IMG/VR virus record: IMGVR_UViG_3300028534_000011
Span: 1-15,682 of that record
DNA from: a virus
Direction: 5' to 3' (one strand)
Length of the DNA stretch: 15,682 nucleotides
Shown: piece by piece, positions 2,106 through 15,682 of the stretch
Layout: the number at the start of each line of letters is the position of its first letter
Position numbering within the stretch: position 1 is the first letter of the stretch
Notes under the pieces: generated by a model
Database searches by the model: none
What the model saw: only the letters and a program-made list of their open reading frames with translations
Told to the model about the DNA's origin: nothing
Position numbers and translations under genes: made by a program

Positions 2106-2107
2106 TT

Positions 2108-2791
2108 TTATTCCTTAAATTGTTCTACTTTAATACCACATTTTTTCATTAATTCTAATCCTGATGTTTCTCTGTACTCTTCTATGTACACAACTCTTTT
2201 TATGCCTGATTGAATTATCATTTTAGAGCATTCTGAACAAGGACTTAATGTTACGTAAAGAGTTGTTCCTTTTAATGGAATTCCTTCTTTTGCTGCAAAA
2301 AGAATAGCATTCGCTTCAGCATGAATGACTTTTGAATGATCAGTAATTAATTCTTTTTTAGTTTCAAAATCTCCTATTAATCTATAATTACCAGAATTAT
2401 CATTAGCATGATTAATAAATCCTATTTGATCGTGACATTTACTGCAATAAATTTTATTGCTTTTCAAGTCTTCGATAATATCTGCTTTACAACATTTGCT
2501 TACCAATTTTTCTTTTTCTTTTTCACAATCTAATTCTTTAGGAATTTGAATTATTCCTGTTCCTTTACATTTATAACAAACATTATAGTTTATTATTCCA
2601 ATTCCTTTGCATTCATCACATATTTTTTCTTCATATTCTATATAACCAGAAGGAGTCCCATTATATCCAATTGAAATAATTCTTGAATCTTTAGCTATTA
2701 CTGCTCCGACTTTATTTCTAATACATTTGCTCTGCTGAGCCCAAAGCTCAGCAGTTTTTAACATTGTTTTGTCAATTTGATATTTAGTCAT
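2108..2791 (-). CDS. cd: dCMP deaminase (T4 Cd-like) with an enlarged Cys-rich insertion
   Basis: 227 aa. VGAVIAKDSRIISIGYNGTPSG, IHAEANAILFAA and YVTLSPCSECSKMIIQSGIKRVVY match the zinc-deaminase HAE/PCxxC motifs and closely match T4 Cd. An ~100-aa insert between GYNG and HAE carries CDECKGIG...CYKCKGTG plus further Cys pairs. Confidence 0.9.
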   Translation of the reverse strand: MTKYQIDKTMLKTAELWAQQSKCIRNKVGAVIAKDSRIISIGYNGTPSGYIEYEEKICDECKGIGIINYNVCYKCKGTGIIQIPKELDCEKEKEKLVSKCCKADIIEDLKSNKIYCSKCHDQIGFINHANDNSGNYRLIGDFETKKELITDHSKVIHAEANAILFAAKEGIPLKGTTLYVTLSPCSECSKMIIQSGIKRVVYIEEYRETSGLELMKKCGIKVEQFKE

Positions 2792-2794
2792 TTT

Positions 2795-3016
2795 TTATCC
2801 TTTATATCCAATTTCATCTATTTCATTTTCGATTTCTTTTAGAAGTTCATCATGATTCAAAAAGAATTCAATTGTATTTGAAAACATTTTATCAAATTTA
2901 TCAATAAGGTAATCTTCATCTTCTTCATAGAAATAAGCTCTTTCCCATAATTCTTTGAATTTTGAAAAATTGATTCTATTATAAATGTAAAGTAGAACTT
3001 TTCTTGTTTTACTCAT
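2795..3016 (-). CDS. Hypothetical protein, first gene of the transcription unit
   Basis: 73-aa ORF. RBS AAAGGAGTTAAAATG lies directly downstream of the cassette promoter. No recognisable motif. Confidence 0.6.
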   Translation of the reverse strand: MSKTRKVLLYIYNRINFSKFKELWERAYFYEEDEDYLIDKFDKMFSNTIEFFLNHDELLKEIENEIDEIGYKG

Positions 3017-3213
3017 TTTAACTCCTTTTTGTTTTATTTACAGTAAAATTATAACATTTTTTCAAATAAATGTAAACAAAAATTAAATAAAATTTGTAAA
3101 ATTTTGTAAAATTTATAAAAATTCATCAGAGATGAATCCAGAGATGATTTCTATAAAAGACATATAAAACTATATTAAAATAATTTTTATATACCAGAAA
3201 CCTTCAGAGAGGA
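3017..3213 (-). repeat. Regulatory cassette copy B (complete; distal stem-loop degenerate)
   Basis: Same block order as copies C and D. The terminal hairpin is eroded to ccttcagagagg (3-bp stem). The second hairpin ATTCATC-AGA-GATGAAT at 3121-3137 is intact. Confidence 0.8.
3048..3076 (-). promoter_or_regulatory. Sigma70-type promoter: -35 TTTACA (3071-3076), 17-nt spacer, extended -10 TGTTATAAT (-10 at 3048-3053)
   Basis: Read directly on the minus strand: TTTACATTTATTTGAAAAAATGTTATAAT. About 30 nt upstream of the RBS/ATG at 3016. A/T-phased TTTACAAAATT repeats lie upstream. Confidence 0.75.
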
Positions 3214-3456
3214 TCAATTGAAAGGAGGAAGTATTTGATAGGAGTTTATTTTAAGTGAAGTATTTTTAGAAGAACAATTTAATATTATTTTCATTATATT
3301 ATTTTTTAAAATTATTTTCAATGTATATGGCAGACCTAAATGACTTAATATTTTATTGAATAAATTAATTTTAATATTTATTTCAAAATTAAATTCTTTT
3401 GCAACGTTTTCAACATCATTAAAATTTTTGATATTTAAAATTTTGTCAAATAACAT
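3214..3456 (-). CDS. Hypothetical protein
   Basis: 80-aa ORF, RBS AAAGGAGTTAAAATG, last gene of its unit. No motif recognised. Confidence 0.55.
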   Translation of the reverse strand: MLFDKILNIKNFNDVENVAKEFNFEINIKINLFNKILSHLGLPYTLKIILKNNIMKIILNCSSKNTSLKINSYQILPPFN

Positions 3457-3474
3457 TTTAACTCCTTTAAATTT

Positions 3475-3705
3475 TTATAAATATTTTAAATAAAATTCAG
3501 GAATAGCATCTAATTCTTCAACAATTTTCAAAGGTATAAAATTTATGTTTGCCACTTTTTCAGGAGAATTATATTTTAATTCTGATTTTATTTTTTTAAT
3601 CCAATTAATAACAGATAGAGTGTAATCTCCTTCTTTGTTTTTTATTTTTGCTAATTTGCAATAAATTTTATTAAGTTTTTTAATCATTAATGGATTTACG
3701 TTCAT
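3475..3705 (-). CDS. Hypothetical protein
   Basis: 76-aa ORF. Its start overlaps the GGDEF gene end by 26 nt. Weak RBS AAAGGCAGAAAATG. Confidence 0.5.
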   Translation of the reverse strand: MNVNPLMIKKLNKIYCKLAKIKNKEGDYTLSVINWIKKIKSELKYNSPEKVANINFIPLKIVEELDAIPEFYLKYL

Positions 3706-4144
3706 TTTCTGCCTTTGATTGAATTATTTTTTTATCTAATTTATTGAAAATTTTTCTAAAATCCATTTTTAAAGGATTGTATATTTCGTAAACATAATTA
3801 CCATATTTTTCTTTAATTGAAAATGGCTTTTTTGAGAAAATCAAAAATTCATCTCCACCTATTCTAAAAATTTCTGATTTTATATACTTTAATTCTTTTT
3901 TTAAATATTCAGAAAATTCTAAGATATATTCATTACCTTTTTCCCATCCATATTTTCTATTAATTTTATGTAAATTATTTAAATCAACTAAACAAACAAC
4001 ATAATCAGAATTTTCACTAGAAATGTAATTCAAAAAATCTTTTAATTTATATCTATTTCCAAAACCAGTTAAATCATCATGTTTTAATTTATGAATTTCT
4101 TCTTTTAATTCTATAATTTCTTTTTTTAATTTTTCACAATCCAT
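3680..4144 (-). CDS. Minimal GGDEF-domain protein (putative diguanylate cyclase) with a short N-terminal coiled coil
   Basis: 154 aa. Motifs: DDLTGFGNRY (the DxLTGLxNR entry motif), VDLNNLHKINRKYGWEKGNEYIL (metal-binding D/N region) and RIGGDEFLIF (intact GGDEF, nt 3845-3859). No RxxD I-site five residues upstream of GGDEF. RBS AAGGATAATAAAATG. Confidence 0.8.
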   Translation of the reverse strand: MDCEKLKKEIIELKEEIHKLKHDDLTGFGNRYKLKDFLNYISSENSDYVVCLVDLNNLHKINRKYGWEKGNEYILEFSEYLKKELKYIKSEIFRIGGDEFLIFSKKPFSIKEKYGNYVYEIYNPLKMDFRKIFNKLDKKIIQSKAENERKSIND

Positions 4145-4314
4145 TTTATTATCCTTACAATAAAATCTGAAACATCTATCATTCCAATTAAAACAAAAAT
4201 AGTCAAAATATCATAAGTAATATTTTTATCAATTTTAGCGATATAAATTACCAAAAAATAAAGAAATAAAAAAATGATTAATTTGTATATGAAATTAATG
4301 ATTATTTCTTTCAT
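4126..4314 (-). CDS. Small membrane protein (two predicted TM helices)
   Basis: 62 aa, hydrophobic runs IIFLFLYFLVIYIA and ILTIFVLIGMI. Its 3' end overlaps the GGDEF start by 19 nt. Confidence 0.6.
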   Translation of the reverse strand: MKEIIINFIYKLIIFLFLYFLVIYIAKIDKNITYDILTIFVLIGMIDVSDFIVRIIKWIVKN

Positions 4315-4400
4315 TTTATGTTCCTTAAAAAGTAAAATATTAATAAAATTAATATTACAACTGAATATATAATAATAAAAATAATATCTAGTAGTTCCAT
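4311..4400 (-). CDS. Unannotated 29-aa hydrophobic peptide (MELLDIIFIIIYSVVILILLIFYFLRNIK)
   Basis: Not in the supplied ORF track, which lists nothing under 62 aa. The ATG lies 1 nt after the upstream stop, with AAAAGGTTTAAAATG as RBS. Its TGA overlaps the next ATG (ATGA). It would form a single TM helix. Confidence 0.4.
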   Translation of the reverse strand: MELLDIIFIIIYSVVILILLIFYFLRNIK

Positions 4401-4401
4401 T

Positions 4402-4602
4402 TTAAACCTTTTCTCTTAAGATATATAGATTAGATAAATAATCAAAAAAATTTAATCCTGTACATTTTGAAATTTCTTTTATAAAATTTGCAGTAGATTG
4501 ATTATATAAATAATCTTCAAATTGTTCCCAATTTTCAAAATGTACATTAGTACATTCTTTTATTTGTTTTAAAATTTTTTGTCTAAATTCATGTATTGTC
4601 AT
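4402..4602 (-). CDS. Hypothetical protein
   Basis: 66-aa ORF with a 4-nt ATGA overlap with the upstream ThyX-like gene. Confidence 0.6.
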   Translation of the reverse strand: MTIHEFRQKILKQIKECTNVHFENWEQFEDYLYNQSTANFIKEISKCTGLNFFDYLSNLYILREKV

Positions 4603-5537
4603 TGTTTTCCCTCAAATAATAATTGTTTTATTCCTTCAACTGTTTTTTTAGTTTGTTCTTGAGTCCAATCTTTATAATATTCTGGAAATGCACTTCTTTG
4701 TAAACATAAATGTTCCCAAGTTGTGGGATCATTAATCCAACCTGCCATAAACCAAGTTTTGTATTTTAGTCCATAATGAAATCTTTGGTAAATTTCTTTT
4801 GGATACCCTAACTCTTTTAATATTTCATAAACTTCATTTGTAGAGAAATTATAAAATAAGTCTTTCTTCAACTCCTCTATATTTTGACTGTCCTGATATT
4901 CTAAGAATAATTCATATATATCAAATTCTAAACTTCTTTTTCCTGACCACTCTTTTTCTAAAATTTCTTTCATTCTATCAAATATGTCAGTAGGCAGCCA
5001 ATAATCAGTTTCCTCAACCACCCTTTCTGATATTGCTATTTTAGATAATGCTTGATGAGTATATAATTGATCAAATACAAAATGTGGTGCTTTGATTTTA
5101 ACAACTTTAAAGTCTTTTACCTCTTCTTCTGTATTAAAAGGCACATACTCAAATAATCCTGAATTGTATACTGCTCTAAAGTTAGTGCAAATATTATAAT
5201 TTTCATCTATGTAAGAATATCTTAGCAAATTATTAATTATAATTCTGTTGATATTACTTGTTAACATAGATAATTTTACTGGACAAAACTCTAATGCTCT
5301 GCTTGCATTTCTATGATCTTCTTTTGCTTCATTGATAGTATTTGGAGCTGCTTCTCTTAACAAATGTTCATATCTTTTTCTTGGGTTTGCTGAACTGTCT
5401 TTACCTCTGCTTATTGCCGCTATACTAGTTATAAAATCAATTCTTTTTTCTTTACTTAAATTTGCTTTTGATGAATCAATTAATTCTACATAACCAAGAT
5501 TATCTGGTAAATCTATATGTTTTAATACCTTTAGCAT
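4599..5537 (-). CDS. Divergent ThyX-like (flavin-dependent thymidylate synthase fold) protein with a non-canonical signature
   Basis: 312 aa. GYVELID...IAAISRG, and KAPHFVFDQLYTHQALSKIAISERV, are collinear with Thermotoga ThyX GFVELVD...AARVS and [25 protein letters not shown]. The later LCLQRSA aligns with LNLRADSHA. The RHR signature reads THQ (nt 5052-5060). Confidence 0.55.
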   Translation of the reverse strand: MLKVLKHIDLPDNLGYVELIDSSKANLSKEKRIDFITSIAAISRGKDSSANPRKRYEHLLREAAPNTINEAKEDHRNASRALEFCPVKLSMLTSNINRIIINNLLRYSYIDENYNICTNFRAVYNSGLFEYVPFNTEEEVKDFKVVKIKAPHFVFDQLYTHQALSKIAISERVVEETDYWLPTDIFDRMKEILEKEWSGKRSLEFDIYELFLEYQDSQNIEELKKDLFYNFSTNEVYEILKELGYPKEIYQRFHYGLKYKTWFMAGWINDPTTWEHLCLQRSAFPEYYKDWTQEQTKKTVEGIKQLLFEGKQ

Positions 5538-5538
5538 T

Positions 5539-5718
5539 TTAAACTCCTTCTTTTATTTTATAAGTCCATCTATTGAATTTTTCAATTTTTCCTTCTTTAA
5601 TTAATTTTTTAAGTGCATCCCTGATAATTGTTTTTTTTATTCCTAATATTTTTTCAAGTAAAGATACTCTAAAATATTCTACTTCTTTTGCAATTTTCAT
5701 AATTTCTTCTTCAAACAT
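5539..5718 (-). CDS. Unannotated 59-aa winged-helix/HTH-like small DNA-binding protein
   Basis: Not in the supplied track. Sequence: MFEEEIMKIAKEVEYFRVSLLEKILGIKKTIIRDALKKLIKEGKIEKFNRWTYKIKEGV. Strong RBS GGAGGAGTTAAATG. ATGTTTGA overlap with the kinase stop, and its stop lies 1 nt before the next ATG. The helix-turn-helix plus beta-wing pattern resembles small wHTH regulators. Confidence 0.55.
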   Translation of the reverse strand: MFEEEIMKIAKEVEYFRVSLLEKILGIKKTIIRDALKKLIKEGKIEKFNRWTYKIKEGV

Positions 5719-6205
5719 TTAACTCCTCCATTACTTTATTTATTTTTTCTTTTAATTTATTTAAATTTTTTTCTGTGTTGTCTATAATTATTTCATTCTC
5801 AACATCAAATTTTTCTGGATATTCTTCTTTAATGTTTTTATCAATAACGTGAATAAAAATCACATCATCGATTTCTTTTATTTTTTTGTATTCAATTTCA
5901 AATCTACAATCAGATATAATATTTATTTTTGTGACATCTAATTGCTTTATGATTGATTTTACCCAAAAATCTGGATATACTTTTTTTATTTCTTCACCCA
6001 GCCATATAAGATATTTTCTGTATTTTTTCTTATTTTTTTCTAATTCTTTACATGATATTTCTTTTATATTACAAATAATTTTTTTAATCAAAGAAGCAAA
6101 TGAATATCTATTTGGTTTAATTCCTTTATTTTTAAAATATTCTTCTATTAAATCAGCAACTGTATCTTTTCCAACTCTTTTCTCTCCATAAATAAGAATT
6201 GTCAT
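5711..6205 (-). CDS. Deoxynucleoside monophosphate kinase (T4 gp1 family)
   Basis: 164 aa. MTILIYGEKRVGKDTVADLI matches T4 gp1 MKLIFLSGVKRSGKDTTADFI. Also DFWVK/MYWVK and SDCRFEIE/PDTRQDHE. First gene after a cassette promoter. Confidence 0.7.
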   Translation of the reverse strand: MTILIYGEKRVGKDTVADLIEEYFKNKGIKPNRYSFASLIKKIICNIKEISCKELEKNKKKYRKYLIWLGEEIKKVYPDFWVKSIIKQLDVTKINIISDCRFEIEYKKIKEIDDVIFIHVIDKNIKEEYPEKFDVENEIIIDNTEKNLNKLKEKINKVMEELNV

Positions 6206-6236
6206 TTAAAATCCTTTTTAATTTGTTTACAATAAA

Positions 6237-6265
6237 ATTATAATATATTTTAAAATAGATGTAAA
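6237..6265 (-). promoter_or_regulatory. Sigma70-type promoter: -35 TTTACA (6260-6265), 17-nt spacer, -10 TATAAT (6237-6242)
   Basis: Minus strand reads TTTACATCTATTTTAAAATATATTATAAT. It is positioned upstream of the RBS and the ATG at 6205. Confidence 0.75.
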
Positions 6266-6375
6266 TAAAAATTAAAAGAAATTTATAAAATTTCTAAAAT
6301 TTCATCAGAAATGAATCCAGAGGTAATTTGTAAAAAAGATATATTTTTATATCAAAAATATTAAAATACATCAGA

Positions 6376-6391
6376 GACCTCCAGAGAGGTC
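6376..6391 (-). terminator. GC-rich stem-loop (GACCTC-TCTG-GAGGTC) just after the MazG-like stop codon
   Basis: 6-bp stem and 4-nt loop. Same element as 101-118 and 11353-11368. Confidence 0.45.
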
Positions 6392-6392
6392 C

Positions 6393-6914
6393 TTATTTAT
6401 ATTTTTTAATAATTTCTTGATATATAGGATCTGATTCTTTTATAAAATTTCCTTCAGGTGTAAGAAATCCTTTTCTATCTTTTATTTCATTATATGCGCA
6501 TTCTAATGCATAATTTGGATCAATATATTCAAATCTAGAATATCCAGTCAGATATTCATAACTTTTTTCAATTAAATCTGCTGCAGACTTGTAATCATGC
6601 TTGATGATTTTATCTCCTATATTACAAATATGTTCTGCAACTTCATTAAGAGAATTAAATTCTTTAGAATAATTAAAATTTATTTCTAAATCGTCTTCTA
6701 ATCTTAACAACTCACTTAAATTAATAAGAACAACTTGAACATCACCTATTGCATCAATCAATTTTTCTTTGTCTAACAATCTTAGTGCTTCATAAATTTC
6801 TGAAAATTCACCCATTAATTTTGCAAATTGAACTAATGGTGAAGCATTTGGAATTATTCCTCTATCTTTACTCCATTGAATCACTTTATTTCTTAATTCT
6901 TCATTCATTTTCAT
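6393..6914 (-). CDS. MazG-like all-alpha NTP pyrophosphohydrolase (candidate dCTPase, functional analogue of T4 gp56)
   Basis: 173 aa. FAKLMGEFSEIYEAL...AIGDVQVVLINLSE is the typical ExxE / GD helix pair of MazG/DCTPP1-type enzymes. The dCTPase role is inferred from context only. Confidence 0.65.
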   Translation of the reverse strand: MKMNEELRNKVIQWSKDRGIIPNASPLVQFAKLMGEFSEIYEALRLLDKEKLIDAIGDVQVVLINLSELLRLEDDLEINFNYSKEFNSLNEVAEHICNIGDKIIKHDYKSAADLIEKSYEYLTGYSRFEYIDPNYALECAYNEIKDRKGFLTPEGNFIKESDPIYQEIIKKYK

Positions 6915-7492
6915 TTCATCTCCTTTAATGTTTGTTTAATTTTATTTAATTCTTCTTTTGTATTAAAATATAAAGTTGATTTATTTGCTTTATATGCAAA
7001 AAAACCATTCATAATAACTAAATCAAGAAAATCTTCTTGATTGTTATTTAATTTTCTAATTTTAAAAATTGAATTATCTTGCCATCCTGTTTTATGTTTA
7101 GTATAACCAAAAATTTTGTTGTTTTTATCCATTTCAAATGAAACATATGCATTTATTCTATATGTTACAGTCATATAATTTATTTTAACAAAATCTGCTT
7201 TTAAAAATTCATCAATATTTGAATCTGAAAAAAACACGTCAGACCAACATATATTTATTTCTCCCAACATTTTATGTAATTTATAAACATCTTTGCCACT
7301 TCCTTTTTGAAAATCTCCAATTAAAAATTCTGATTTTAAATGTTTTATATCTTCATATATTTTAGGTGTTGTAACTATAATTGGAGTTATTCCAAAATTT
7401 TTAAAGACATTTTTATTCCATTCAAATGTTTCCAAAATTTTTGGACTTCCAAATCTGCTTGATTTTCCTGCTGCCATTATAAATATTTCCAT
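6911..7492 (-). CDS. Small GT-A fold nucleotidyltransferase (sugar-phosphate / MobA-CofC-like NTP transferase)
   Basis: 193 aa. The N-terminal IMAAGKSSRFGSPKILE matches the (L/A)AGxGxR(x)nPK signature of GlmU/IspD/MobA-type nucleotidyltransferases. 4-nt overlap with the MazG-like gene. Confidence 0.65.
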   Translation of the reverse strand: MEIFIMAAGKSSRFGSPKILETFEWNKNVFKNFGITPIIVTTPKIYEDIKHLKSEFLIGDFQKGSGKDVYKLHKMLGEINICWSDVFFSDSNIDEFLKADFVKINYMTVTYRINAYVSFEMDKNNKIFGYTKHKTGWQDNSIFKIRKLNNNQEDFLDLVIMNGFFAYKANKSTLYFNTKEELNKIKQTLKEMK

Positions 7493-7501
7493 TTTAACTC
7501 C

Positions 7502-9172
7502 TTATAAAATTGAATTGTCAATGAATTTTAAAATTGTATAAGTATCATAAGGACTTTTTACTTCTAAACACGTCATATTTTCAAACATTTCTTTGTCATT
7601 TCCATCTTTTTCATCAGCGATATAGATTGTTTTATCTAAATTCAAATAAATTTTATTTTTTATTTGTTTAATATTTTCATATTTATTTGTCATTTTACTC
7701 ATTATGTCAATAGTAGATACTCCTGCTTTTCTTATGTATATTTCATTTTTTTCTATTTCATCTTTAAACAATTCAATTAGATAATTATATAATACTTCTC
7801 TGTAATCATCATCTAAAAATCTTAAAGAAATAACAGAATCTGCTCTGTTTTCATATTTTGAAAAATTAAATTTTACTCTTTTAAGAGCATTAAAAATTTT
7901 ATTTTGATCTTTAATAACATTTAATTTTAAAATTATATTTCTTTTATAATCATAAACAGTATTTGCATAATTACAAAAATAATAATTAAATTTTCCTTTA
8001 ATTTCATTTATATCTTTACCTGTTACTAAAATTGTTTCGATAGGCAATTTTTCTACCAATTCAATGACTTTAAGTGATATTTCAATATCATTGATGTTTC
8101 TTGACATTAAAGTATCATCATAATCAATCATTAATGTTTGCAATTTTTTAGGATTTAATCCTTTTTCTTTAAAATATTCTTCTAGTATTTTATATGCTAA
8201 AAGATTTCCATCGTGTTTGTTTTCATAATATTCACTTTTAAAATTACAAACAATTTCATTGTCAACATTTAAATGAATATCTGAAAATACTTTATCAAAT
8301 TTAACATATTTTGAAATGATTTCAAACTGCTCTTTTTTTGAATATCCTTTCATATCTTTATCTGTGGAAACATTCATAATTAAATAAACTTCTTTATTTT
8401 TAATAGATTCATTAAATCCTTTTGTCTTATATGTCGGTATGAGTGATGAAAATTGAGTTCCAGCACTTAAAACAATTAAATCAGAATCTTTTATTATTTT
8501 TTTAGCTCTTTCAGATAAAATTGGCTGTTTTTCATTTCCATACTTGTCAATAAAAAATATGTCTACAATTCTATTATTAGGATTATTCCACTCTACAATT
8601 TTTCCTTCATCATAAATAATATAATTATTTTCAGTTTTTGCACATAAAAACAGAGATGTATCATCTGTCACAATAATATTATTAGGTAAATTTAAATATT
8701 TAGCCATTATATCAGCTGCTTTTTGTAATGAATAATTATTTAAATATGCTAAACCTCCATATATAATATTTGCCAAAGAAAAATCATCATATCTTATTTT
8801 TCTTGCAAGAGGCTGTTCAAAATAAACATTTACTGCTTCTATCAATTCATTTGGAAAATCTTTTATTAATTCTTTAATTTCTTTTTCTGGATTTTTATAA
8901 AATGAATATCTTTTATTTAAAATATTAAAAATTTTTTCAGATTCTTCTGTTTTAATTTCATTTCTATAAAGTTGATAATCAAGAAATTGTTGTTTTCTAA
9001 CGTCTGATGGACCAAGAATATTGCCATCAAAAACTTTTCTTATAAGACCAGTTGATTTACCATTGTCATATGCATTTACGAGCGTATATAAATTTACAAA
9101 AGGAATATATTTTGATAATCCTTTTTTCAATTCTACTGAACCTGTTCCACCTGATACAATAAGTACTTTCAT
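7502..9172 (-). CDS. Fusion protein: N-terminal CofD/YvcK family (UPF0052, 2-phospho-L-lactate transferase-like) plus C-terminal HAD-IIB phosphatase-like domain
   Basis: 556 aa. The N-terminal domain (about aa 1-335) has VLIVSGGTGSVELKKGL, NAYDNGKSTGLIRK...GPSDVRK and DLIVLSAGTQFSSLIPT...VYLIMNVSTDKDMKGYS, collinear with CofD/YvcK motifs. The C-terminal domain has LMIDYDDTL (HAD motif I DxDxT), LVTGKD (motif II) and ADEKDGNDKEMF (motif IV). Confidence 0.7.
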   Translation of the reverse strand: MKVLIVSGGTGSVELKKGLSKYIPFVNLYTLVNAYDNGKSTGLIRKVFDGNILGPSDVRKQQFLDYQLYRNEIKTEESEKIFNILNKRYSFYKNPEKEIKELIKDFPNELIEAVNVYFEQPLARKIRYDDFSLANIIYGGLAYLNNYSLQKAADIMAKYLNLPNNIIVTDDTSLFLCAKTENNYIIYDEGKIVEWNNPNNRIVDIFFIDKYGNEKQPILSERAKKIIKDSDLIVLSAGTQFSSLIPTYKTKGFNESIKNKEVYLIMNVSTDKDMKGYSKKEQFEIISKYVKFDKVFSDIHLNVDNEIVCNFKSEYYENKHDGNLLAYKILEEYFKEKGLNPKKLQTLMIDYDDTLMSRNINDIEISLKVIELVEKLPIETILVTGKDINEIKGKFNYYFCNYANTVYDYKRNIILKLNVIKDQNKIFNALKRVKFNFSKYENRADSVISLRFLDDDYREVLYNYLIELFKDEIEKNEIYIRKAGVSTIDIMSKMTNKYENIKQIKNKIYLNLDKTIYIADEKDGNDKEMFENMTCLEVKSPYDTYTILKFIDNSIL

Positions 9173-9174
9173 TT

Positions 9175-10263
9175 TTACTCCTTCAATAATTCTGATAATT
9201 TTTGTGAATATTCAATTGGATCAATTTTACAATCTTCATATTGCAAATCACAGATTTTTTTGCATAGTTCTTCAGATTCTTTGATTTTCTTTAATTTTTC
9301 TTGTACTTCATATTTATTTTGGACATATAACAATTTTTTAAGCTTTTCATTATTGAATGCTCTTTTTTCTGGATCTAATTTAATATCAATAAATGAAATA
9401 TTATTAGCCAAAACACCTTCATATATTCTTTGATTTAATGTATTTCCATAATATTTTTTATCTCCAATGTTTACAGTTGCTTTAAATTCATTCATTTTAT
9501 TCAAAAATTTTGAATATTCAACTGGTTTTTCAAATTTTGGTGGATTTCCATGAATTTCTGGATTATATTTCTTAAATTTATTTAATGTTATAGGTCCAAA
9601 AACTTCAACATCTAAATCTAATCCAAAATAATATTCTAGAATTTGTTCTTCTCTTTTGCCTCCTCTTAATGTTCCTCCATATCCTAAATCTTTTATTTTT
9701 TTAGACCAATCCCATTTTAATCTTTCATTTAATAATGGAAACTTATAAAACTCAAAAAATTTATAATCTCTTGGTTTGATTTGCTTTTCAATTTGTTTTT
9801 TAAATGGATCTATATTATAAGGCTGATGAATATAAACAATATCATCACGTGTAATTAAAATGTCTTCTTTTTTCCATTTTTTTCCCCAAGGTTTCTTCTC
9901 TACAATTGACCAAATTTGTTTCAAATGAAGCTCAGGATCACAATACATATAATAAACAGGTCCTTTATAACTGTTTATTATTTTATAATTTATAAGTTGA
10001 GTATAATCTTCTTGACCTCCAAAAAAATTTACATTACCATTAATGATAACAAGTGCATCAAAATTATTTTGTAAATTAAAAAATTCATCAATTTGATGCC
10101 CAATTGCAAAATCAATAGGAGGATCATTATTTAATATTTTTGTAAAATAATGAACTTCATTTGTAAATGAAAGAGTTTTAATAATAGAAAGGGCTTCACC
10201 TGAACCTCCTGAAGTCCCTTTGTTTGCAATTCTTGCACCTAATTTGATAACTGCTATTTTCAT
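9175..10263 (-). CDS. DNA beta-glucosyltransferase-like glycosyltransferase (T4 BGT family)
   Basis: 362 aa. Matches to T4 BGT: MKIAVIKLGARI / MKIAIINMGNNV; FDALVIINGNVNFFGG / YDRLIVVNSSINFFGG; YYMYCDPEL / YYLFTDIRL (catalytic Asp); YGGTLRGGKREE / YGGSFRSGQRES (UDP-binding Arg pair); NIGDKKY...NQRIYEGV / IIGDKNY...TLRVWETM. Confidence 0.8.
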   Translation of the reverse strand: MKIAVIKLGARIANKGTSGGSGEALSIIKTLSFTNEVHYFTKILNNDPPIDFAIGHQIDEFFNLQNNFDALVIINGNVNFFGGQEDYTQLINYKIINSYKGPVYYMYCDPELHLKQIWSIVEKKPWGKKWKKEDILITRDDIVYIHQPYNIDPFKKQIEKQIKPRDYKFFEFYKFPLLNERLKWDWSKKIKDLGYGGTLRGGKREEQILEYYFGLDLDVEVFGPITLNKFKKYNPEIHGNPPKFEKPVEYSKFLNKMNEFKATVNIGDKKYYGNTLNQRIYEGVLANNISFIDIKLDPEKRAFNNEKLKKLLYVQNKYEVQEKLKKIKESEELCKKICDLQYEDCKIDPIEYSQKLSELLKE

Positions 10264-10655
10264 TTGTTTTCCTTTAATTCATTTAATTTTTTATCAAGCT
10301 CTAAATTTATAATTTTCAAAGATTTATTCAGAATTGGAGATATTTTTTTGTCAATTTTTAATTCTTTGCCTGCATTATATCCTAAGTAAGAATAAAATAA
10401 ATATTTCTTAGGAATTAAAACAGCAATTAAAATTCCAATAATGACTGTTACTATAATTCCTTTGATGTATCCCATAAGATTTGATTTTATTTTTTTAATT
10501 TTTTCTATTTCTTCTTTTTCTTTACAACAATAATCTAAAACCATTCCATCATACAAAAATAATAAAACTAACATAGAACATCCACCAAAAATTAATATAT
10601 ATTGTAATTTTTCTAATACATCATAAAAATAAAGAAGAAGAAAAATTTTTTCCAT
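10260..10655 (-). CDS. Membrane protein (hypothetical)
   Basis: 131 aa. Hydrophobic segments YILIFGGCSMLVLLFLY and IIVTVIIGILIAVLI. 4-nt overlap with the BGT-like gene. Confidence 0.6.
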   Translation of the reverse strand: MEKIFLLLYFYDVLEKLQYILIFGGCSMLVLLFLYDGMVLDYCCKEKEEIEKIKKIKSNLMGYIKGIIVTVIIGILIAVLIPKKYLFYSYLGYNAGKELKIDKKISPILNKSLKIINLELDKKLNELKENK

Positions 10656-10656
10656 T

Positions 10657-11169
10657 TTAAACTCCTAATTCTTTTTTATAAAATTCTTTAAATTCATTCC
10701 AATAAATAGAATTTTTAATTAATTCTATATATTTTTTATCCCAATTATTAATGTTTGGCAATCCTTGGTGTTTTAATGAATCATCTATATCCCAAACAAG
10801 CATAGGAAAATTATATTTTCCTTCAAAATAATAATGAAAATATTTTTCATTAAATTTATTTGGAAATGTTTCGCATGCTTCTCTCAATTCTTCTTTGTTC
10901 CTAAACAAAATTACTTTATCTGTAAATAAATTTGAAAGTTTATTATGGTTAATGTAATCTTCAATTAAATTTTTATAGCAATAAAACATATCACCAACAT
11001 ATGTATAATAAAATTCATTTTCTGGAATATATAAAATTAATTTTATAGTACCATCTTCAATTTTTTCTTCTATGATTGAATCTTTTGAAATTAAAGTGAT
11101 AATTTCATCTAAATCATCTATATTTTTTGTAATTTTAAATCTTTCAAATAATTCTTTTAATCTTTCCAT
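10657..11169 (-). CDS. Hypothetical protein, first gene of its unit
   Basis: 170-aa ORF. RBS AAAGGAGTTAAAATG downstream of a cassette promoter. Confidence 0.6.
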   Translation of the reverse strand: MERLKELFERFKITKNIDDLDEIITLISKDSIIEEKIEDGTIKLILYIPENEFYYTYVGDMFYCYKNLIEDYINHNKLSNLFTDKVILFRNKEELREACETFPNKFNEKYFHYYFEGKYNFPMLVWDIDDSLKHQGLPNINNWDKKYIELIKNSIYWNEFKEFYKKELGV

Positions 11170-11201
11170 TTTAACTCCTTTTAATTTATTTTAACATTAA
11201 A

Positions 11202-11230
11202 ATTATAACACTTTTTCAAATAAATGTAAA
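11202..11230 (-). promoter_or_regulatory. Sigma70-type promoter: -35 TTTACA (11225-11230), 17-nt spacer, extended -10 TGTTATAAT (-10 at 11202-11207)
   Basis: Minus strand reads TTTACATTTATTTGAAAAAGTGTTATAAT, upstream of the RBS and the ATG at 11169. Confidence 0.75.
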
Positions 11231-11347
11231 TAAAAATTAAAAGAAATTTGTAAAATTTTATTAAATTTCTAAAATTTCATCAGAGATGAATCAAGAAATG
11301 ATTTCTATAAAAGATATATAAAAATATATCAAAATAATTTTTATTCA

Positions 11348-12337
11348 TCAGAGACCTCCAGAGAGGTCCAAAATATATTTGTAATTTCCATAATCATAAG
11401 ATATATAATATTCATTTTTTAGCATTATTTCTTTTTCAGAAAGATTTTCATCATAAAATTTTAAAAATCCTTCTTCATAGTATTTTTTAAGTTTATGTTT
11501 TTGAAATTTTTGCCTTGGATAAATTATTCCATTTTTTATATAAAAATAATTCGGTTTTGTTTCTCCTATCAATTTAAATTTATTTTTGTTATACGTATTT
11601 TCTTTATAAGTCCATCTTTTGTTTCCATAGCTTACCAAATATTTATATTCTTTTAACTCAGGAATATTTTTCAAAGAATATTTTAAAAGTTTACTAAATG
11701 CTCCAATAATAATTGTATACTTTTTAGAAGCAAATCTATATAATTCAAATTCATCTTTTTTGAATCTTGATTTTCCAAAAGTCATTACCGAAACTAATTC
11801 ATTATTATAATATAATCCTATTTTATATTTTGAAGGAATATATCCTTGCAAATGATTTTCTTCTAGAAAATTTGCAGTCTCTTTTGATGAAATTTCTTTA
11901 ATTATACAGTTTCTTGCATATATTTTTTGAATAAAAGGTGCTCTCATTTTAACAGCAATTTTAGATTTCCAGATATCTTTTTTTAAAGAATCTGTCCATT
12001 CATATTCTTTAATTGTAAATAAATGAATTCCTTTTTCTAGACATAAATTATATTTATTAATATATAAATCTTGGTGCCAATAATCTCCATCAAATTCTAT
12101 AGCAAAATTGTATTCTGGGATATAAATATCCAATTCATATGGAGATATGATTTTTCTTGTATTTGTTTGAATTTCTTTAGAATAAAATGATTTTATAAAA
12201 GAAACAATTTCAATTTCATATTGAGATTTGACATTTTTAAAATATAAAGGAATATCTATTTCAAATATTTTAAAAATTTTATGAATAGTTCTATAATTTA
12301 AATTAAAATCTTCACATATTTTTTGTGCATCAATCAT
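11348..12337 (-). CDS. Homing-endonuclease-like protein, C-terminal part (Vsr/PD-(D/E)XK-like nuclease core plus Hef-like C-terminal domain). The open frame continues without a start codon up to 12637.
   Basis: ELDIYIPEYNFAIEFDGDYWH is the typical Vsr/DUF559-type nuclease motif. I checked triplet by triplet that the frame has no stop from 12637 to 11348 (430 codons). There is no in-frame ATG/GTG/TTG upstream of 12337 and no RBS before that ATG. Confidence 0.55.
   Translation of the reverse strand: MIDAQKICEDFNLNYRTIHKIFKIFEIDIPLYFKNVKSQYEIEIVSFIKSFYSKEIQTNTRKIISPYELDIYIPEYNFAIEFDGDYWHQDLYINKYNLCLEKGIHLFTIKEYEWTDSLKKDIWKSKIAVKMRAPFIQKIYARNCIIKEISSKETANFLEENHLQGYIPSKYKIGLYYNNELVSVMTFGKSRFKKDEFELYRFASKKYTIIIGAFSKLLKYSLKNIPELKEYKYLVSYGNKRWTYKENTYNKNKFKLIGETKPNYFYIKNGIIYPRQKFQKHKLKKYYEEGFLKFYDENLSEKEIMLKNEYYISYDYGNYKYILDLSGGL
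11353..11368 (-). terminator. GC-rich stem-loop (GACCTC-TCTG-GAGGTC), here encoding the last codons (LDLSGGL) of the endonuclease ORF
   Basis: Identical core to 6376-6391. The stop codon TGA at 11348-11350 lies in the conserved tcatcagag flank. Confidence 0.4.
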
Positions 12338-12439
12338 ATCTAATTTTTCATCATAATAATTAAAAATAGCATAATAAATATGATTGTATTTTTTCTTAAA
12401 TGTTTCTTTTTCTTTATTAATTCTAATTAAATATGAATT

Positions 12440-12861
12440 ATTTACACCATATTTTTCTTTTAAAGAATTAATAATTTTATTTCTGACTATAGGAGAAGAA
12501 ATAGCATATTCAGTTCCATATTTTTCTAAATTTGTTTTCTTAACTTTTTCTTTTAAACTATCTGATTGTAAAGGAATTATACTTCCATATTTTTCTAAAT
12601 TTGTTTTTTTAATTTTTTCTCTAACTTCTTTAAGAACTTAATGACTATTCAACTCCATATCTTTTTAAATTAGTCTGTTTTATTTTTTCTTTAATTTTTT
12701 CAGATTTTAAAGGATTATCAACTCCATATTTTTCTAAATTTGTTTTCTTGATTTTTTCTTTAATTTTTTCTGATTTCATAGGATTATCAACACCATACCT
12801 CTCTTTTACTGTTTCTTTTACTTTTGCATATTTACATTCTTTTTTTCCACAAGTTTTACTG
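12440..12861 (-). repeat. Six tandem 69-bp (23-aa) coding repeats, consensus KxTNLEKYGVxNPxxSxxIKEKI
   Basis: The YG codon core (ccata on +) recurs at 12447, 12516, 12585, 12655, 12724 and 12793. Spacing is 69 nt throughout, except 70 nt between 12585 and 12655, which is exactly where the ORF breaks. Confidence 0.85.
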
Positions 12862-13121
12862 TAATTTTTACCATTAAATTTTAATTTTTTTTCTTTACAT
12901 ATCGGACAAATAGGCATATATAAAATTTTTTTAAATATACAATAATTTAATTCAGATTTGTTTTTGCACCAATAAAAAGCTTCAAAGGCTTTATCTAATA
13001 AAGAAGGATTATGTTGAAAAATTGTTTTAATACTATTTCTTGTTTTATTTTCAAAATATTCTATCAATTCAAGTCTTACATTATATTTTTCAGGAGAATC
13101 CTGAAATTTATTCTTTTTCAT
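12645..13121 (-). CDS. Homing-endonuclease-like protein, N-terminal part (CxxC...C...C zinc-finger region plus the first KYGV repeats)
   Basis: 158 aa with CPICKEKKLKF...CGKKEC followed by ERYGVDNPMKSEKIKEKIKKTNLEKYGVDNPLKSEKIKEKIKQTNLKRYGVE. It stops at a TAG, while the repeat array continues downstream in another frame. Its start overlaps the end of the hydroxymethylase gene by 14 nt. Confidence 0.55.
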   Translation of the reverse strand: MKKNKFQDSPEKYNVRLELIEYFENKTRNSIKTIFQHNPSLLDKAFEAFYWCKNKSELNYCIFKKILYMPICPICKEKKLKFNGKNYSKTCGKKECKYAKVKETVKERYGVDNPMKSEKIKEKIKKTNLEKYGVDNPLKSEKIKEKIKQTNLKRYGVE

Positions 13122-13803
13122 TTATAAACCTTTCAATATATTTGAAATGCCTTTCATAAACATGAAAACTTGAAGCAGTCCAAATAATAGATCCTAATTC
13201 TAATTCTGGATATGTTTTTTTAAGTTCACTGTATAGTTTATTTTGAACATATTGGGCCCAATATACATCATTTTGAAATCCAAAAACTGCATCATTACTT
13301 CTCATAACATAATGACTAATTAATTTATTGTCTCTAATAAAACATTGATTATACATCGTACAAATAAAATCACTCATTCCATTTTTGTTATATTCATAAT
13401 GCATACTAGGTCTATTATAAATCATAATAGCTCTTCTAGAATAAGGATTTCTTTTTAATTCTCTTATACAATTTTTAAATTGATCATAATTTTCTTTACT
13501 GAAAATAATCCAACCATAATTTGAATTTATAAATCCATCTTTATCTGAAACTTGTTTCCAAATCTCAGGAACTTTGCCTGGAATATCATAGACATTAAGA
13601 CTTTGACTTTCATACCATTCAATTTCTCTTTTTGCATAATCTATGTTTGTTTCTCTTATAATATATGGTTCATCAACTAAAAATGTAACTCCTATCAATT
13701 CAATCAATTTTGCACCTGTTTTATCAATGACAAAATCTTTATTTTTATATTTTTGAATAATCATATTTCTAATGTCTTTAATTTTAAGCATTTTTTCAAA
13801 CAT
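13108..13803 (-). CDS. Deoxycytidylate 5-hydroxymethyltransferase (T4 gp42-like dCMP hydroxymethylase)
   Basis: 231 aa, collinear with T4 gp42 at the same residue numbering. Matches: KDFVIDKTGAKLIELIG / KDFVVDKTGVKTIEIIG; REIEWY (Glu60); INSNYGW; NPYSRRAIMIYNRPSM; GMSDFICT (Cys148); MRSNDAVFGFQND (Asp179, the cytosine-specifying residue where thymidylate synthases have Asn). Confidence 0.9.
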   Translation of the reverse strand: MFEKMLKIKDIRNMIIQKYKNKDFVIDKTGAKLIELIGVTFLVDEPYIIRETNIDYAKREIEWYESQSLNVYDIPGKVPEIWKQVSDKDGFINSNYGWIIFSKENYDQFKNCIRELKRNPYSRRAIMIYNRPSMHYEYNKNGMSDFICTMYNQCFIRDNKLISHYVMRSNDAVFGFQNDVYWAQYVQNKLYSELKKTYPELELGSIIWTASSFHVYERHFKYIERFINEKE

Positions 13804-13814
13804 TTTTTCTCCTT

Positions 13815-14342
13815 TTATTTTAATCTTAATTTTGTTAAAATTTCATTATGAACTTGCTCAGGATCTTTTTTATTTATATTAATTAAAACTTTATTTTTTA
13901 TAGTACTCAATTCATATACTTTCTTAAATAATTCAATTTCTTTTTTCTTCATTTCGATATTTGTTGAAAATGAATATCCATCTTCTCTTTTTATTAAATT
14001 TTCAGGTTTGTCTATTAATACAATTAGATATAAATCATTAATTTCATTTATTTTGTGATTTCTTTCTAAATCTATCACATAAAGACCTTCATATCCTCTA
14101 TAAAGTTTTCCATATACCAATTCACCTAAATGACTTCTATCTGCTATAATATTGTATTTTTTAAGTAATTCAAAAAATTCAGAATAAAGTTTTATATTAT
14201 AATCAATACAATCAATAATTGAATCATGTTTCACTGCACTATAATGAACTGTATGAAAAGTGATTTTATTAAATTTATCTTTTATTAATTTTATTTGAGT
14301 CGTTTTTCCAACGTTGTCTGGACCTTCAAAAATTATTTTCAT
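13815..14342 (-). CDS. P-loop nucleoside monophosphate kinase, thymidylate kinase-like
   Basis: 175 aa. IIFEGPDNVGKTT resembles the Tmk P-loop (EGxDGxGKTT). ADRSHLGELVYG resembles the Tmk DRxxxSxxAY motif. Substrate is unknown. Confidence 0.55.
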   Translation of the reverse strand: MKIIFEGPDNVGKTTQIKLIKDKFNKITFHTVHYSAVKHDSIIDCIDYNIKLYSEFFELLKKYNIIADRSHLGELVYGKLYRGYEGLYVIDLERNHKINEINDLYLIVLIDKPENLIKREDGYSFSTNIEMKKKEIELFKKVYELSTIKNKVLININKKDPEQVHNEILTKLRLK

Positions 14343-14674
14343 TTTAATTCCTTTATTTCAATTTCATCTATAAAATTATCTATAAAATTTAACAATATAT
14401 TATATATGCCATTTACTTTTTTCACAATATAAAAATCATCTGTATTTTTCAAAATTTCATATCTTATTTTTCTGATTTCATTGAATTTTAATTTTTCTTC
14501 TATTTTTTTCACAATATAATCTCTTATTTTATCTTTTGCTAATATATCTGTATCTATAAAAGATGGAATTTCATTTTTTGAAAATACTATATTTAATTCA
14601 TCACTTTTTAATTCTCCATAATATTTTTTAAAATTATCATCAATTTCTTTTTTTATTTCTAATTTGATTTTCAT
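14339..14674 (-). CDS. Hypothetical protein
   Basis: 111-aa ORF with 4-nt overlaps on both sides. Confidence 0.6.
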   Translation of the reverse strand: MKIKLEIKKEIDDNFKKYYGELKSDELNIVFSKNEIPSFIDTDILAKDKIRDYIVKKIEEKLKFNEIRKIRYEILKNTDDFYIVKKVNGIYNILLNFIDNFIDEIEIKELK

Positions 14675-15213
14675 TTTAACTCCTTTTTATAATCTTCAAA
14701 TATTTTGTCTGTTTTTCCTATTCTTAAATAATATGAAGGATGGTTTAATTGAATTATTTCTTTGTCAGAAAAATAATATTTAATAGTCTCATAATCTTTG
14801 TATTTTCCTAATAACACTATTTTATAATCTTTATTTGAAAGTAAAAATTCTAATTCTTTAATTATAAATGTTTCATAACTGTTGTAATCTTTATAATAAT
14901 TTGTAAAAAATGGAAATATATTTAATTTATATAATACTTCTATCAAAAGTTTAGACGTTGGACCATAAAGAAATACAGTTTCACAAGGATAGTATTTCAT
15001 TTTGCCTGGAGTGAAACCAACAAATATATAATCAGAATATAAATTTCCTCTTGGTGGAGTTTTCAAAATCTTGTATTTATTTATGAGAAGAGAAATATCA
15101 TATGGAGAAAATATACCTGGAAAGAGTATATTTTTTATAGAAGGATTTTTATTGATAATTTTAAGTCTATTCTCACAAACATATTTTTCTGTAAGAATAT
15201 CAAAATTTATCAT
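14671..15213 (-). CDS. Uracil-DNA glycosylase superfamily (family 4-like fold) protein with an altered motif A
   Basis: 180 aa. IFVGFTPG...YGPTSKLLIEVLYKLNI...FFTNYYK...IVLLGK...NHPSYYLR is collinear with family-4 UDG FVGEGPG...GKAGQLLNRILEAAGI...ITNIVKC...IVPLG...FHPAYLLR. The motif A Glu is Phe, and the four Fe-S cysteines are absent. Confidence 0.5.
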   Translation of the reverse strand: MINFDILTEKYVCENRLKIINKNPSIKNILFPGIFSPYDISLLINKYKILKTPPRGNLYSDYIFVGFTPGKMKYYPCETVFLYGPTSKLLIEVLYKLNIFPFFTNYYKDYNSYETFIIKELEFLLSNKDYKIVLLGKYKDYETIKYYFSDKEIIQLNHPSYYLRIGKTDKIFEDYKKELK

Positions 15214-15222
15214 TTTAACTCC

Positions 15223-15561: not shown

Positions 15562-15682
15562 TTTAACTCCTTTGTTTTAATTTGTTTTAACAATAAAATT
15601 ATAACACATTTTCAAATAAATGTAAATAAAAATTAAAAGAAATTTATAAAATTTTATAAAATTTCTAAAATTTCATCAGAAA
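15562..15682 (-). repeat. Regulatory cassette copy E (partial, cut by the window end): promoter-proximal half
   Basis: Aligns with the promoter halves of copies B-D. The last 35 nt are identical to window positions 1-35. Confidence 0.8.
15598..15626 (-). promoter_or_regulatory. Sigma70-type promoter: -35 TTTACA (15621-15626), 17-nt spacer, extended -10 TGTTATAAT (-10 at 15598-15603)
   Basis: Minus strand reads TTTACATTTATTTGAAAATGTGTTATAAT, upstream of the RBS and the ATG at 15561. Confidence 0.75.

Follow-up and report, generated by a model that had tools for sequence, protein, structure and literature searches.

A CofD/YvcK-like domain fused to a phosphomannomutase-like HAD domain: candidate core of an activated-sugar cassette for phage DNA glycosylation

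We describe a fusion protein of 556 amino acids (aa) encoded in a 15,682-nucleotide stretch of viral DNA (IMG/VR record IMGVR_UViG_3300028534_000011, positions 1 to 15,682; the window in what follows), in which an N-terminal domain of the CofD/YvcK fold is joined to a C-terminal HAD-IIB domain that most resembles phosphomannomutase (PMM). On balance, we favour the view that this fusion is the bifunctional core of a portable activated-sugar cassette, and that the donor made by the cassette is used to glycosylate 5-hydroxymethylcytosine (hmC) in the phage DNA. Phages decorate their DNA with sugars to evade restriction and CRISPR, and recent work indicates that the sugar chemistry of phage DNA is far more diverse than the glucose of T4. 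Phage DNA-glycosylation clusters with their own sugar-activation genes are known; what is new here is a CofD/YvcK-like catalytic domain within such a cluster, and its very wide distribution. Because the fusion is widespread, adjoins DNA glycosyltransferases and holds a domain to which no role can readily be assigned, it offers a concrete place to look for an undescribed DNA modification or sugar-nucleotide route.

The open reading frame (ORF) of the fusion is single and uninterrupted. A preliminary description of this DNA, made from the letters of the sequence, had read it as an unusual joining of a CofD/YvcK-like transferase to a HAD-IIB phosphatase-like domain, and every motif quoted there is found in the translation in collinear order: SGGTG (aa 7-11), DNGKSTG (aa 36-42), GPSDVR (aa 54-59) and LSAGTQFSSLIP (aa 235-246) in the N-terminal half, and DYDDTL (aa 350-355), VTGKD (aa 383-387) and DGNDKEMF (aa 523-530) in the C-terminal half. 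The two-domain architecture is borne out by the Pfam CofD family, by family profiles, by structure comparison and by conserved full-length relatives. An AlphaFold2 model computed from an alignment of 56 relatives has a pLDDT of 93.6 and a pTM of 0.91, with only residues 299-308 poorly defined; in Foldseek searches with this model, the N half is matched by folds of the UPF0052/YvcK type and the C half by those of PMM. The fusion is uncharacterised, but it is hardly rare: it belongs to a large family spread across phages and bacteria. A word-indexed search gave 177 relatives, more than 120 of them full length (535-683 aa), and an exhaustive search of 50%-identity representatives gave 929 matches at E <= 0.001, with nearly all of the 163 matches at E <= 1e-30 covering both halves. 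The carriers include jumbo phages of up to 430 kb; the only cultured carrier found is Ralstonia phage RsoM2USA, and the paper on this phage leaves the gene unannotated and reports no DNA composition. PHROGs holds no family for the fusion or for the nucleotidyltransferase encoded next to it, and the BFVD viral structure library returned HAD matches only and no CofD/YvcK-fold relative.

That an assembly error or a frameshift artificially joined two genes, a concern also raised in the preliminary description, is refuted by the conservation data, and we give it practically no credence. Natural split forms do exist: in one locus (L094, 1804-3513) the N domain and the HAD domain are separate genes, and in a phage locus (L055, 3924-6288) a CofD-like gene stands alone and is followed by a 444-aa ORF, in which a nucleotidyltransferase domain lies behind an uncharacterised N-terminal half that is presumably the HAD domain. 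There is also a one-nucleotide indel elsewhere in the window, at position 12632. Against this, the identical 556-aa protein is present in two independent assemblies (a 119-kb ENA contig and a Logan assembly), and hundreds of full-length relatives span both halves at 27-58% identity. The confident model has a continuous helix-to-strand junction between the domains, and the differences between the window and the public contig (four substitutions and one extra base) all lie outside the fusion ORF.

The N-terminal half matches Pfam CofD (PF01933) at aa 3-314 with 74.5 bits (cut-off 30; E = 1e-20), as do 56 of the 56 aligned relatives, and it carries the motifs GGTG, DNGKSTG, GPSDVRK, SxGTQ(W/F)SSLIPT and N..D.D. 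When the family profile was run against the PDB, the best match of this half was 2ppv (2e-30), followed by 2hzb, 2q7x, 2o2z and 2p0y, all of the YvcK type; true CofD (3c3d) reached only 0.003. Foldseek likewise ranks 2ppv high (5e-15), and 2ppv, 2o2z, 2hzb and 2q7x fall between E = 1e-15 and 1e-11 with target TM-scores of 0.65-0.74; CofD 3c3d has E = 1e-10. Relative to YvcK there is an insertion of ~48 residues, and all YvcK motifs can be aligned. None of the curated subfamily models reaches its cut-off: the YvcK model TIGR01826 gives 63 bits (cut-off 196; 56 of 56 relatives match it at E <= 0.001, the best at 3.6e-31), the F420 CofD equivalog TIGR01819 gives 15.7 bits (cut-off 257.45), and the GAK-system CofD-like model TIGR04357 gives 51.9 bits (cut-off 340). 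Because every curated subfamily cut-off is missed, the N half is, as judged by its sequence, a separate branch or subfamily of the CofD/YvcK superfamily.

Conservation within this branch is pronounced. Residues G8, G9, G11, D36, G38, T41, G42, G54, S56, D57, K60, R88, E189, D231, S236, G238, S243, N267, D271 and D273 are conserved among the 56 relatives, and 27 invariant or near-invariant residues of the phage N domain show the same degree of conservation among 40 cellular homologues. In Listeria GlmR, the combined mutation of three residues including D40 cuts uridylyltransferase activity ~100-fold (PMC10128056). Asp36 of the fusion would be the equivalent of D40, by motif position and not by alignment, and by the same motif-position comparison, again not by alignment, GlmR D41 would be replaced by Asn and N198 by Thr or Ser.

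For the C-terminal half, single-sequence and family-level searches differ in power. The HAD-IIB model TIGR01484 gives only 26.2 bits with the window protein (cut-off 41.8; E = 7e-6; aa 347-533), and 19 of the 56 relatives match it at E <= 0.001. A profile of 25 C-domains run against PDB sequences, however, is led over its full length by PMM of P. falciparum (PfPMM) 7myv (1e-19), by alpha-phosphoglucomutase (alpha-PGM) 4bnd from Lactococcus (2e-15) and by PMM2 (2e-14); trehalose-6-phosphate phosphatase follows at 5e-8, and Cof-type phosphatases at 6e-7 or worse. With Foldseek, too, PMMs rank first (E ~1e-11). The predicted fold and the family profile thus place the C half in HAD subclass IIB. 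The earlier assignment to this subclass is correct; the earlier label of phosphatase-like is the less well supported one, as the PMM/alpha-PGM profile matches (E = 1e-19 to 1e-12) beat those to phosphatases.

All four HAD motifs are present in the C half: motif I as D350-x-D352-x-T354, motif II as T384-G385, motif III as K497, and motif IV as D520-E521...N525-D526. In the 56 sequences, D350, D352, T354 and K497 are invariant and S/T384-G385 is conserved, while in motif IV D520 is kept in 54 and N525 and D526 in 55 sequences each. The C half shares with PMM the DxDxT nucleophile and acid/base pair, the GDxxxxGND form of motif IV and a TGxTTIDI..K segment. R358 (in 49/56), R443 (in 45/56) and R458 (in 51/56) align with arginines of PfPMM. 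We tentatively equate these three with R21, R123 and R141 of human PMM2, where they bind the phosphate of the substrate together with R134; the loop for R134 appears to be absent here. Identity to PMM and alpha-PGM is only ~16-20%, and the window protein has no PF03332 match in the Pfam scan; the family-level comparisons nonetheless make a PMM-like nature of the C half well supported.

The gene directly downstream of the fusion encodes a nucleotidyltransferase that is a weak match as a single sequence (PF12804, E = 0.019). The family profile is led by the N-terminal uridylyltransferase domain of GlmU (5vmk, 9e-19, most of the profile covered), followed by other sugar-1-phosphate nucleotidyltransferases and IspD, and NTP_transf_3 is matched by 29 of 35 family members; the 60 best PDB matches of this profile (all E <= 0.006) do not include CofC. 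The window's own protein belongs to a short clade (with L005 and L007) of 188-195 aa as against 225-287 aa elsewhere, with ~45-50 residues fewer. The short form lacks a helical segment behind the HDxSIF motif and is, for this reason, scarcely detected by Pfam. The association of these enzymes goes as far as covalent fusion: triple fusions of ~800 aa exist in the order CofD-HAD-nucleotidyltransferase, and among cells we found the arrangements GT2-CofD, CofD-GT2 and nucleotidyltransferase-CofD-GT2, GT2 being a family of glycosyltransferases.

To see the company that the fusion keeps in phages, we compiled 62 phage loci (57 from IMG/VR, the window, two public assemblies and two phage genomes, some of them near-duplicates); genes were counted by iterated hidden Markov model searches, and the kinase and the absence of a homologue of the T4 beta-glucosyltransferase (beta-GT) were scored within 10 kb. 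The nucleotidyltransferase is found in 59 of the 62 loci and, bar three loci, lies 0-14 nt downstream of the fusion or overlaps it on the same strand. Homologues of beta-GT occur in 49 loci, mostly directly upstream of the fusion; in the window, the end of the beta-GT homologue lies 3 nt upstream of it. A hydroxymethylase occurs in 33 and a thymidylate-kinase-like kinase in 35 loci, and three further phage contigs, found by protein identity, have the same gene order. Across the phage loci there is no recurrent epimerase or dehydratase, and the other recurrent neighbours belong to nucleotide metabolism. The two halves of the fusion are soluble and near-neutral, with net charges of +1 and -1, whereas the beta-GT homologue carries +7; judged by its composition, the fusion has little resemblance to a protein that binds DNA. 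A functional coupling of the two halves is clear, as the preliminary description had supposed, but the neighbours point to nucleotide-sugar supply for DNA glycosylation and not to the free-standing two-step reaction envisaged there. In one phage contig (L147, 10696-13317), two GT2-like genes and a weakly GT9-like gene come after the beta-GT homologue, the fusion and the nucleotidyltransferase, an arrangement that would suit the assembly of an oligosaccharide on the modified base in some phages.

The same module is found in cells. When each prokaryotic species was scanned through one genome, 441 relatives came to light, from which 80 cellular loci were kept: 40 with the full fusion or its halves as adjacent genes, and 40 with the N domain but without a IIB-type HAD. 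The first group comes mostly from gut Firmicutes; in an example from gut Clostridia, on a 426-kb contig that is a bacterial chromosome since glycolysis genes flank the locus, a GT2 gene with several predicted membrane-spanning segments is followed by the fusion and then by the nucleotidyltransferase. Carriers of the N domain only are found among Prochlorococcus, SAR86, Chitinophagaceae, Bdellovibrionales, sphingomonads, Acidobacteria, Patescibacteria and Woesearchaeota, and nearly all of these loci have a nucleotidyltransferase homologue within ~4 kb or fused to the domain. A GT2 gene is present in 37 of 40 N-domain-only and 30 of 40 full-fusion cellular loci, but in none of the 62 phage loci. 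A recurring cellular operon consists of CofD-like, HAD_2, GT2 and GlmU-like nucleotidyltransferase genes, as in a Prochlorococcus chromosome from a single amplified genome (L142, 10001-13487); its HAD partner is closest to a sugar phosphatase and to beta-phosphoglucomutases (beta-PGM), and its nucleotidyltransferase is GlmU-like as in phages. In two loci (L143 and L144, 10001-14448), this operon lies inside a polysaccharide-assembly cluster with Polysacc_synt, Wzy_C and EpsG-type genes; there, a methyltransferase gene is inserted in the operon and an asparagine-synthase-like amidotransferase gene adjoins it. As far as the literature we found shows, the operon is uncharacterised. Since the module that adjoins DNA glycosylation genes in phages goes with GT2 enzymes of polysaccharide synthesis in Prochlorococcus, SAR86, gut Clostridia and archaea, phages and cells can inform each other.

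The CofD-like domain, the GlmU-like nucleotidyltransferase and a HAD enzyme from a lineage that contains mutases are thus the constant components, while the glycosyltransferase varies with the acceptor: it is T4 beta-GT-like, or a TET-associated DNA glycosyltransferase (TAGT), in the setting of hmC DNA, and GT2 in that of polysaccharide synthesis. Most simply, the trio would make a donor and the glycosyltransferase would spend it. Mutase-type lineages fill the HAD slot, PMM/alpha-PGM-like in phages and beta-PGM- or sugar-phosphatase-like in cells. In agreement with a role in donor supply, the N-domain residues are alike whatever the acceptor, the fusion is near-neutral, and there are published precedents. 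In a metagenomic phage cluster ('contig 53'), a protein combining HAD and APH-like kinase domains, a cytidylyltransferase and a beta-GT-like glycosyltransferase are all three needed for heptosyl-5hmC (bioRxiv 10.1101/2023.12.21.572611), and in RB69, DLP3 and HY126 the route to UDP-arabinofuranose runs through an isomerase, a kinase, a HAD phosphatase and a nucleotidyltransferase (PMC13326640).

In the route that we suggest, the gp42-like hydroxymethylase would supply hmC, and with it the acceptor hydroxyl in the DNA, a step for which the homology is plain. The PMM/alpha-PGM-type HAD domain would convert a common hexose-6-phosphate to the hexose-1-phosphate, as its family resemblance and conserved catalytic and phosphate-binding residues suggest, and the adjacent GlmU-like enzyme would combine this product with a nucleoside triphosphate, probably UTP, to give a nucleoside diphosphate (NDP)-sugar. 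The CofD/YvcK-like domain would bind the nucleotide or nucleotide-sugar and carry out a further, conserved small-molecule step on the donor, before the T4 beta-GT-like enzyme moves the sugar to hmC, a last step suggested by homology and synteny. The chemistry of the CofD/YvcK step may be new. Candidates are a reaction that turns the NDP-sugar into a less usual form, a furanose for instance, an accessory uridylyl transfer like that claimed for Listeria GlmR (PMC10128056), and an anomeric phosphorylation; further options are a CofD-type transfer of phospho-sugar onto the glycosylated acceptor and a purely regulatory role. The boldest proposal, which we put forward as a long shot worth stating, is that the domain is a new nucleotide-sugar enzyme; it would turn the NDP-hexose from the fused mutase and the adjacent nucleotidyltransferase into an unusual donor, most attractively UDP-glucofuranose. 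If this were true, the DNA of the phages would contain glucofuranosyl-5-hydroxymethylcytosine or some other non-standard hexose, glucofuranan synthesis in bacteria would be accounted for by the same cassette, and the long-debated YvcK/GlmR family would gain a defined catalytic role in nucleotide-sugar metabolism.

A number of observations weigh against donor supply for hmC glycosylation. Within 10 kb, a beta-GT homologue is lacking in thirteen of the 62 phage loci; in five of these, in keeping with the scheme, a gene for TAGT (PF20691), a DNA glycosyltransferase unrelated to beta-GT, adjoins the cassette, but four have as neighbours a short-chain dehydrogenase and a DpdA-like TGT and no recognised glycosyltransferase. 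In these four (L044, L051, L056 and L059), the TGT/DpdA-like gene (phrog_887, 4e-46), the short-chain dehydrogenase gene and a gene for an unassigned 298-aa protein lie immediately upstream of the fusion, a setting that may indicate another acceptor or a connection with 7-deazaguanine DNA modification. The activities are deduced from homology and gene context. For the C half, Pfam scans of single sequences cannot tell PMM from Hydrolase_3 (each is matched by 8 of 56 relatives), and for this reason mutase activity is something that we infer; PMM-fold enzymes such as PMM1 may act as bisphosphatases too. The weak point of the scheme is the CofD/YvcK-like domain itself: on paper, mutase, nucleotidyltransferase and glycosyltransferase suffice, and the most constant part of the cassette is therefore left unexplained unless an extra step is needed. 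To our knowledge, the only firmly established catalysis in the superfamily is that of CofD, which moves a phospho-alcohol from NDP-X to its acceptor and sets free the nucleoside monophosphate (NMP), and this precedent points towards a phosphodiester product.

Such a product would follow if the cassette worked by the logic of CofC and CofD: the nucleotidyltransferase would make NDP-X, such as a UDP-sugar built from the sugar-1-phosphate that the HAD mutase provides, and the CofD-like domain would transfer phospho-X to a hydroxyl, with NMP released. The acceptor would be the sugar just placed on hmC, or hmC itself, and the result a phosphodiester-linked decoration of DNA (or of polysaccharide in cells). 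We rate this as unlikely, yet deserving of serious attention. It draws on the one established reaction of the superfamily to which the N domain belongs and gives every component a non-redundant task; the pairing of CofD-like domain and nucleotidyltransferase, the most conserved one across phages, bacteria and archaea, mirrors CofC and CofD, and the fusions of CofD-like domains with glycosyltransferases fit two transferases acting on one acceptor. On the other hand, the partner enzyme is GlmU-like with CofC missing from its 60 best PDB matches, and the score with the F420 CofD equivalog is far below its cut-off (15.7 bits vs 257). The active-site residues are moreover identical whether the acceptor is DNA or polysaccharide, it being the glycosyltransferase that changes, and it is the beta-GT that is basic, the fusion being near-neutral.

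Closer to the earlier idea of a transfer followed by removal of a phosphate is a kinase and phosphatase that together mimic a mutase, which we consider rather improbable: the CofD/YvcK-like domain would phosphorylate the anomeric hydroxyl, the HAD domain would strip the distal phosphate from the bisphosphate, and the nucleotidyltransferase would activate the sugar-1-phosphate. NDP-heptose and phage UDP-arabinofuranose are made by the same logic, published phage clusters run kinase, HAD phosphatase and nucleotidyltransferase before a beta-GT-like glycosyltransferase, and the CofD-like domain sits in the kinase slot; the order of the triple fusion would be the order of the pathway, and the cap arginines are compatible with a bisphosphate substrate. 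We know of no kinase activity in the CofD/YvcK family, however, and both HAD lineages found in the slot contain mutases, so that a true mutase fits at least equally well. Improbable to a greater degree is a non-catalytic N domain that, like a GlmR-type sensor, binds a UDP-sugar and tunes the fused mutase or stimulates GlmS of the host. YvcK/GlmR proteins are indeed the closest structures, published work describes them as UDP-GlcNAc-binding regulators of GlmS, and a set of mutase, GlmU-like enzyme and YvcK-like domain parallels GlmM, GlmU and GlmR; but ~27 polar and glycine residues are strictly invariant across phages, bacteria and archaea, as in an active site, and the score with the YvcK model (63 bits) is well short of the cut-off of 196. 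The domain is also kept in Prochlorococcus, Bdellovibrionales and Woesearchaeota, which argues against reliance on the GlmS of one host.

The setting of the cassette in the window is that of a T4-like phage, and its features are collected in Table 1. The source contig has genes for UvsW, UvsY, gp32 and ribonucleotide reductase. In the window, G+C is as low as 19-26% per 1-kb windows and essentially all long ORFs are on the minus strand, and a megablast of the whole window against phage genomes gave no match.

Table 1. Features of the fusion gene and of its neighbourhood in the window.
Feature	Position	Strand	Remarks
Fusion ORF, 556 aa	7502..9172	-	CofD/YvcK-fold N domain and PMM-type HAD-IIB C domain
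N-terminal domain, aa 1-~335	8168..9172	-	CofD/YvcK (UPF0052) fold
C-terminal domain, aa ~345-556	7505..8140	-	HAD-IIB, phosphomannomutase/alpha-phosphoglucomutase-like
GlmU-like sugar-1-phosphate nucleotidyltransferase, MobA-like NTP_transf_3, 193 aa	6911..7492	-	directly downstream of the fusion
T4 beta-glucosyltransferase homologue (DNA glycosyltransferase)	9175..10263	-	PF09198 E = 1.5e-24; phrog_7922 E = 5e-55, full length; upstream of the fusion
dCMP hydroxymethylase, T4 gp42 homologue	13108..13803	-	PDB 1b49 E = 5e-75
Thymidylate-kinase-like nucleotide kinase	13815..14342	-	phrog_761 E = 1.7e-15; travels with the hydroxymethylase
dNMP kinase, T4-style nucleotide-pool gene	5711-6205	-	phrog_139 E = 4e-27
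MazG-like pyrophosphatase, T4-style nucleotide-pool gene	6393-6914	-	phrog_1992 E = 1e-37
dCMP deaminase	2108-2791	-	~100-residue insertion inside the deaminase fold
GGDEF-domain protein, 154 aa	3680-4144	-	PF00990 E = 1e-13

In the ThyA family, the change D169N marks 5-hydroxy-dCMP synthases (PMC13326640). The ThyA homologue of the window, annotated here as the hydroxymethylase, has Asp at the ThyA-169 position, and a role as 5-hydroxy-dCMP synthase was rejected because Asp is kept where this criterion needs Asn. It also has Asp at the position of ThyA N177, which was placed by correspondence with T4 gp42, the MAFFT alignment being one column off there. In the dCMP deaminase, profile positions 4-101 are spread over residues 7-203, and the inserted segment gives weak DUF7895 and zinc-ribbon-like matches. 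The GGDEF protein, which sits among the nucleotide-metabolism genes, may be a nucleotide cyclase, although its match stops after the first 90 of the 161 positions of the profile. In the window, an extra A at position 12632 breaks a homing-endonuclease-like gene (11348-13121, minus strand) into ORFs of 158 and 329 aa; the gene is intact in the public contig (590 aa), and 'K..TNLEKYGV' repeats run through the frame change. This one-nucleotide difference explains the 590-aa call on the public contig, for which stop-codon recoding was thus rejected. A candidate assignment of 11348-12337 to Mom-like DNA modification (PF25680, under its cut-off) was likewise dropped, as the homing-endonuclease family phrog_3339 matches far better (7e-89).

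In the literature we found no description of the fusion, nor of CofD/YvcK-like proteins tied to phage DNA modification. With YvcK/GlmR (2ppv, 2hzb/2o2z, 2q7x, 2p0y), the N domain has the fold and the collinear motifs GGTG, D(D/N)GxS(S/T)G..R, PxD(I/V)R and GxG(S/T)xx(T/S)S..P in common, and both families are linked to UDP-sugar metabolism. Unlike YvcK/GlmR, the fusion has its insertion and invariants of its own (K60, R88, D130, E189, D271 and D273), is joined to a HAD domain, and is paired with a nucleotidyltransferase and a glycosyltransferase instead of lying in a yvcJ-yvcK-whiA-type context. A YvcK-like domain covalently joined to a phosphohexomutase-like domain, and sometimes to a GlmU-like enzyme, is a 'Rosetta stone' type of evidence on the disputed function of YvcK/GlmR in UDP-sugar synthesis. 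CofD/FbiA of F420 synthesis, with its partner CofC/FbiD, belongs to the same superfamily and likewise works with a MobA-like nucleotidyltransferase; in the fusion systems, however, the partner is GlmU-like and not CofC-like, and the context is one of glycosyltransferases and hmC synthesis, with DNA-modification and nucleotide-pool genes and no F420-related genes near the fusion. As compared with PMM and alpha-PGM (7myv, 2amy, 4bnd), the HAD domain sits behind a CofD-like domain, and a bisphosphatase function is possible.

Among phage systems, the published clusters of contig 53 and of RB69, DLP3 and HY126 follow the same logic, with a HAD enzyme, a partner domain and a nucleotidyltransferase beside a DNA glycosyltransferase and a ThyA-family enzyme. 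The HAD partner is here of the CofD/YvcK fold and not an APH-type or other kinase, the HAD domain is of the PMM type and not of the GmhB type, and there is no sugar isomerase. With the hmC glucosylation system of T4 (gp42, gp1 and beta-gt), the window's contig shares homologues of gp42, beta-gt, dNMP kinase and dCMP deaminase. T4 relies on UDP-glucose of the host; unlike T4, the present phage lineage adds the fusion and the nucleotidyltransferase between its DNA-modification genes.

A lead from the literature concerns polysaccharide synthesis. In Mycoplasma fermentans PG18, which produces a beta-(1,6)-glucofuranan, the gene of the synthase (BAH69904) lies in a region described as Clostridia-derived, and the locus holds a synthase-type GT2 gene, a CofD-family gene in N- and C-terminal pieces and an NDP nucleotidyltransferase gene, for which the authors suggest a role in UDP-glucofuranose synthesis (PMC11658790). 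By its published description, not by sequence, this gene set is like the cassette of gut Clostridia, and its acceptor is polysaccharide and not DNA; a search with a Mollicutes-like nucleotidyltransferase query gave no match identifiable as M. fermentans. The natural split forms (L094 and L055) may explain why the M. fermentans copy has been described as two 'pseudogenes'. By analogy, the glucofuranan locus favours, among the options for the CofD/YvcK-like domain, the conversion of an NDP-sugar.

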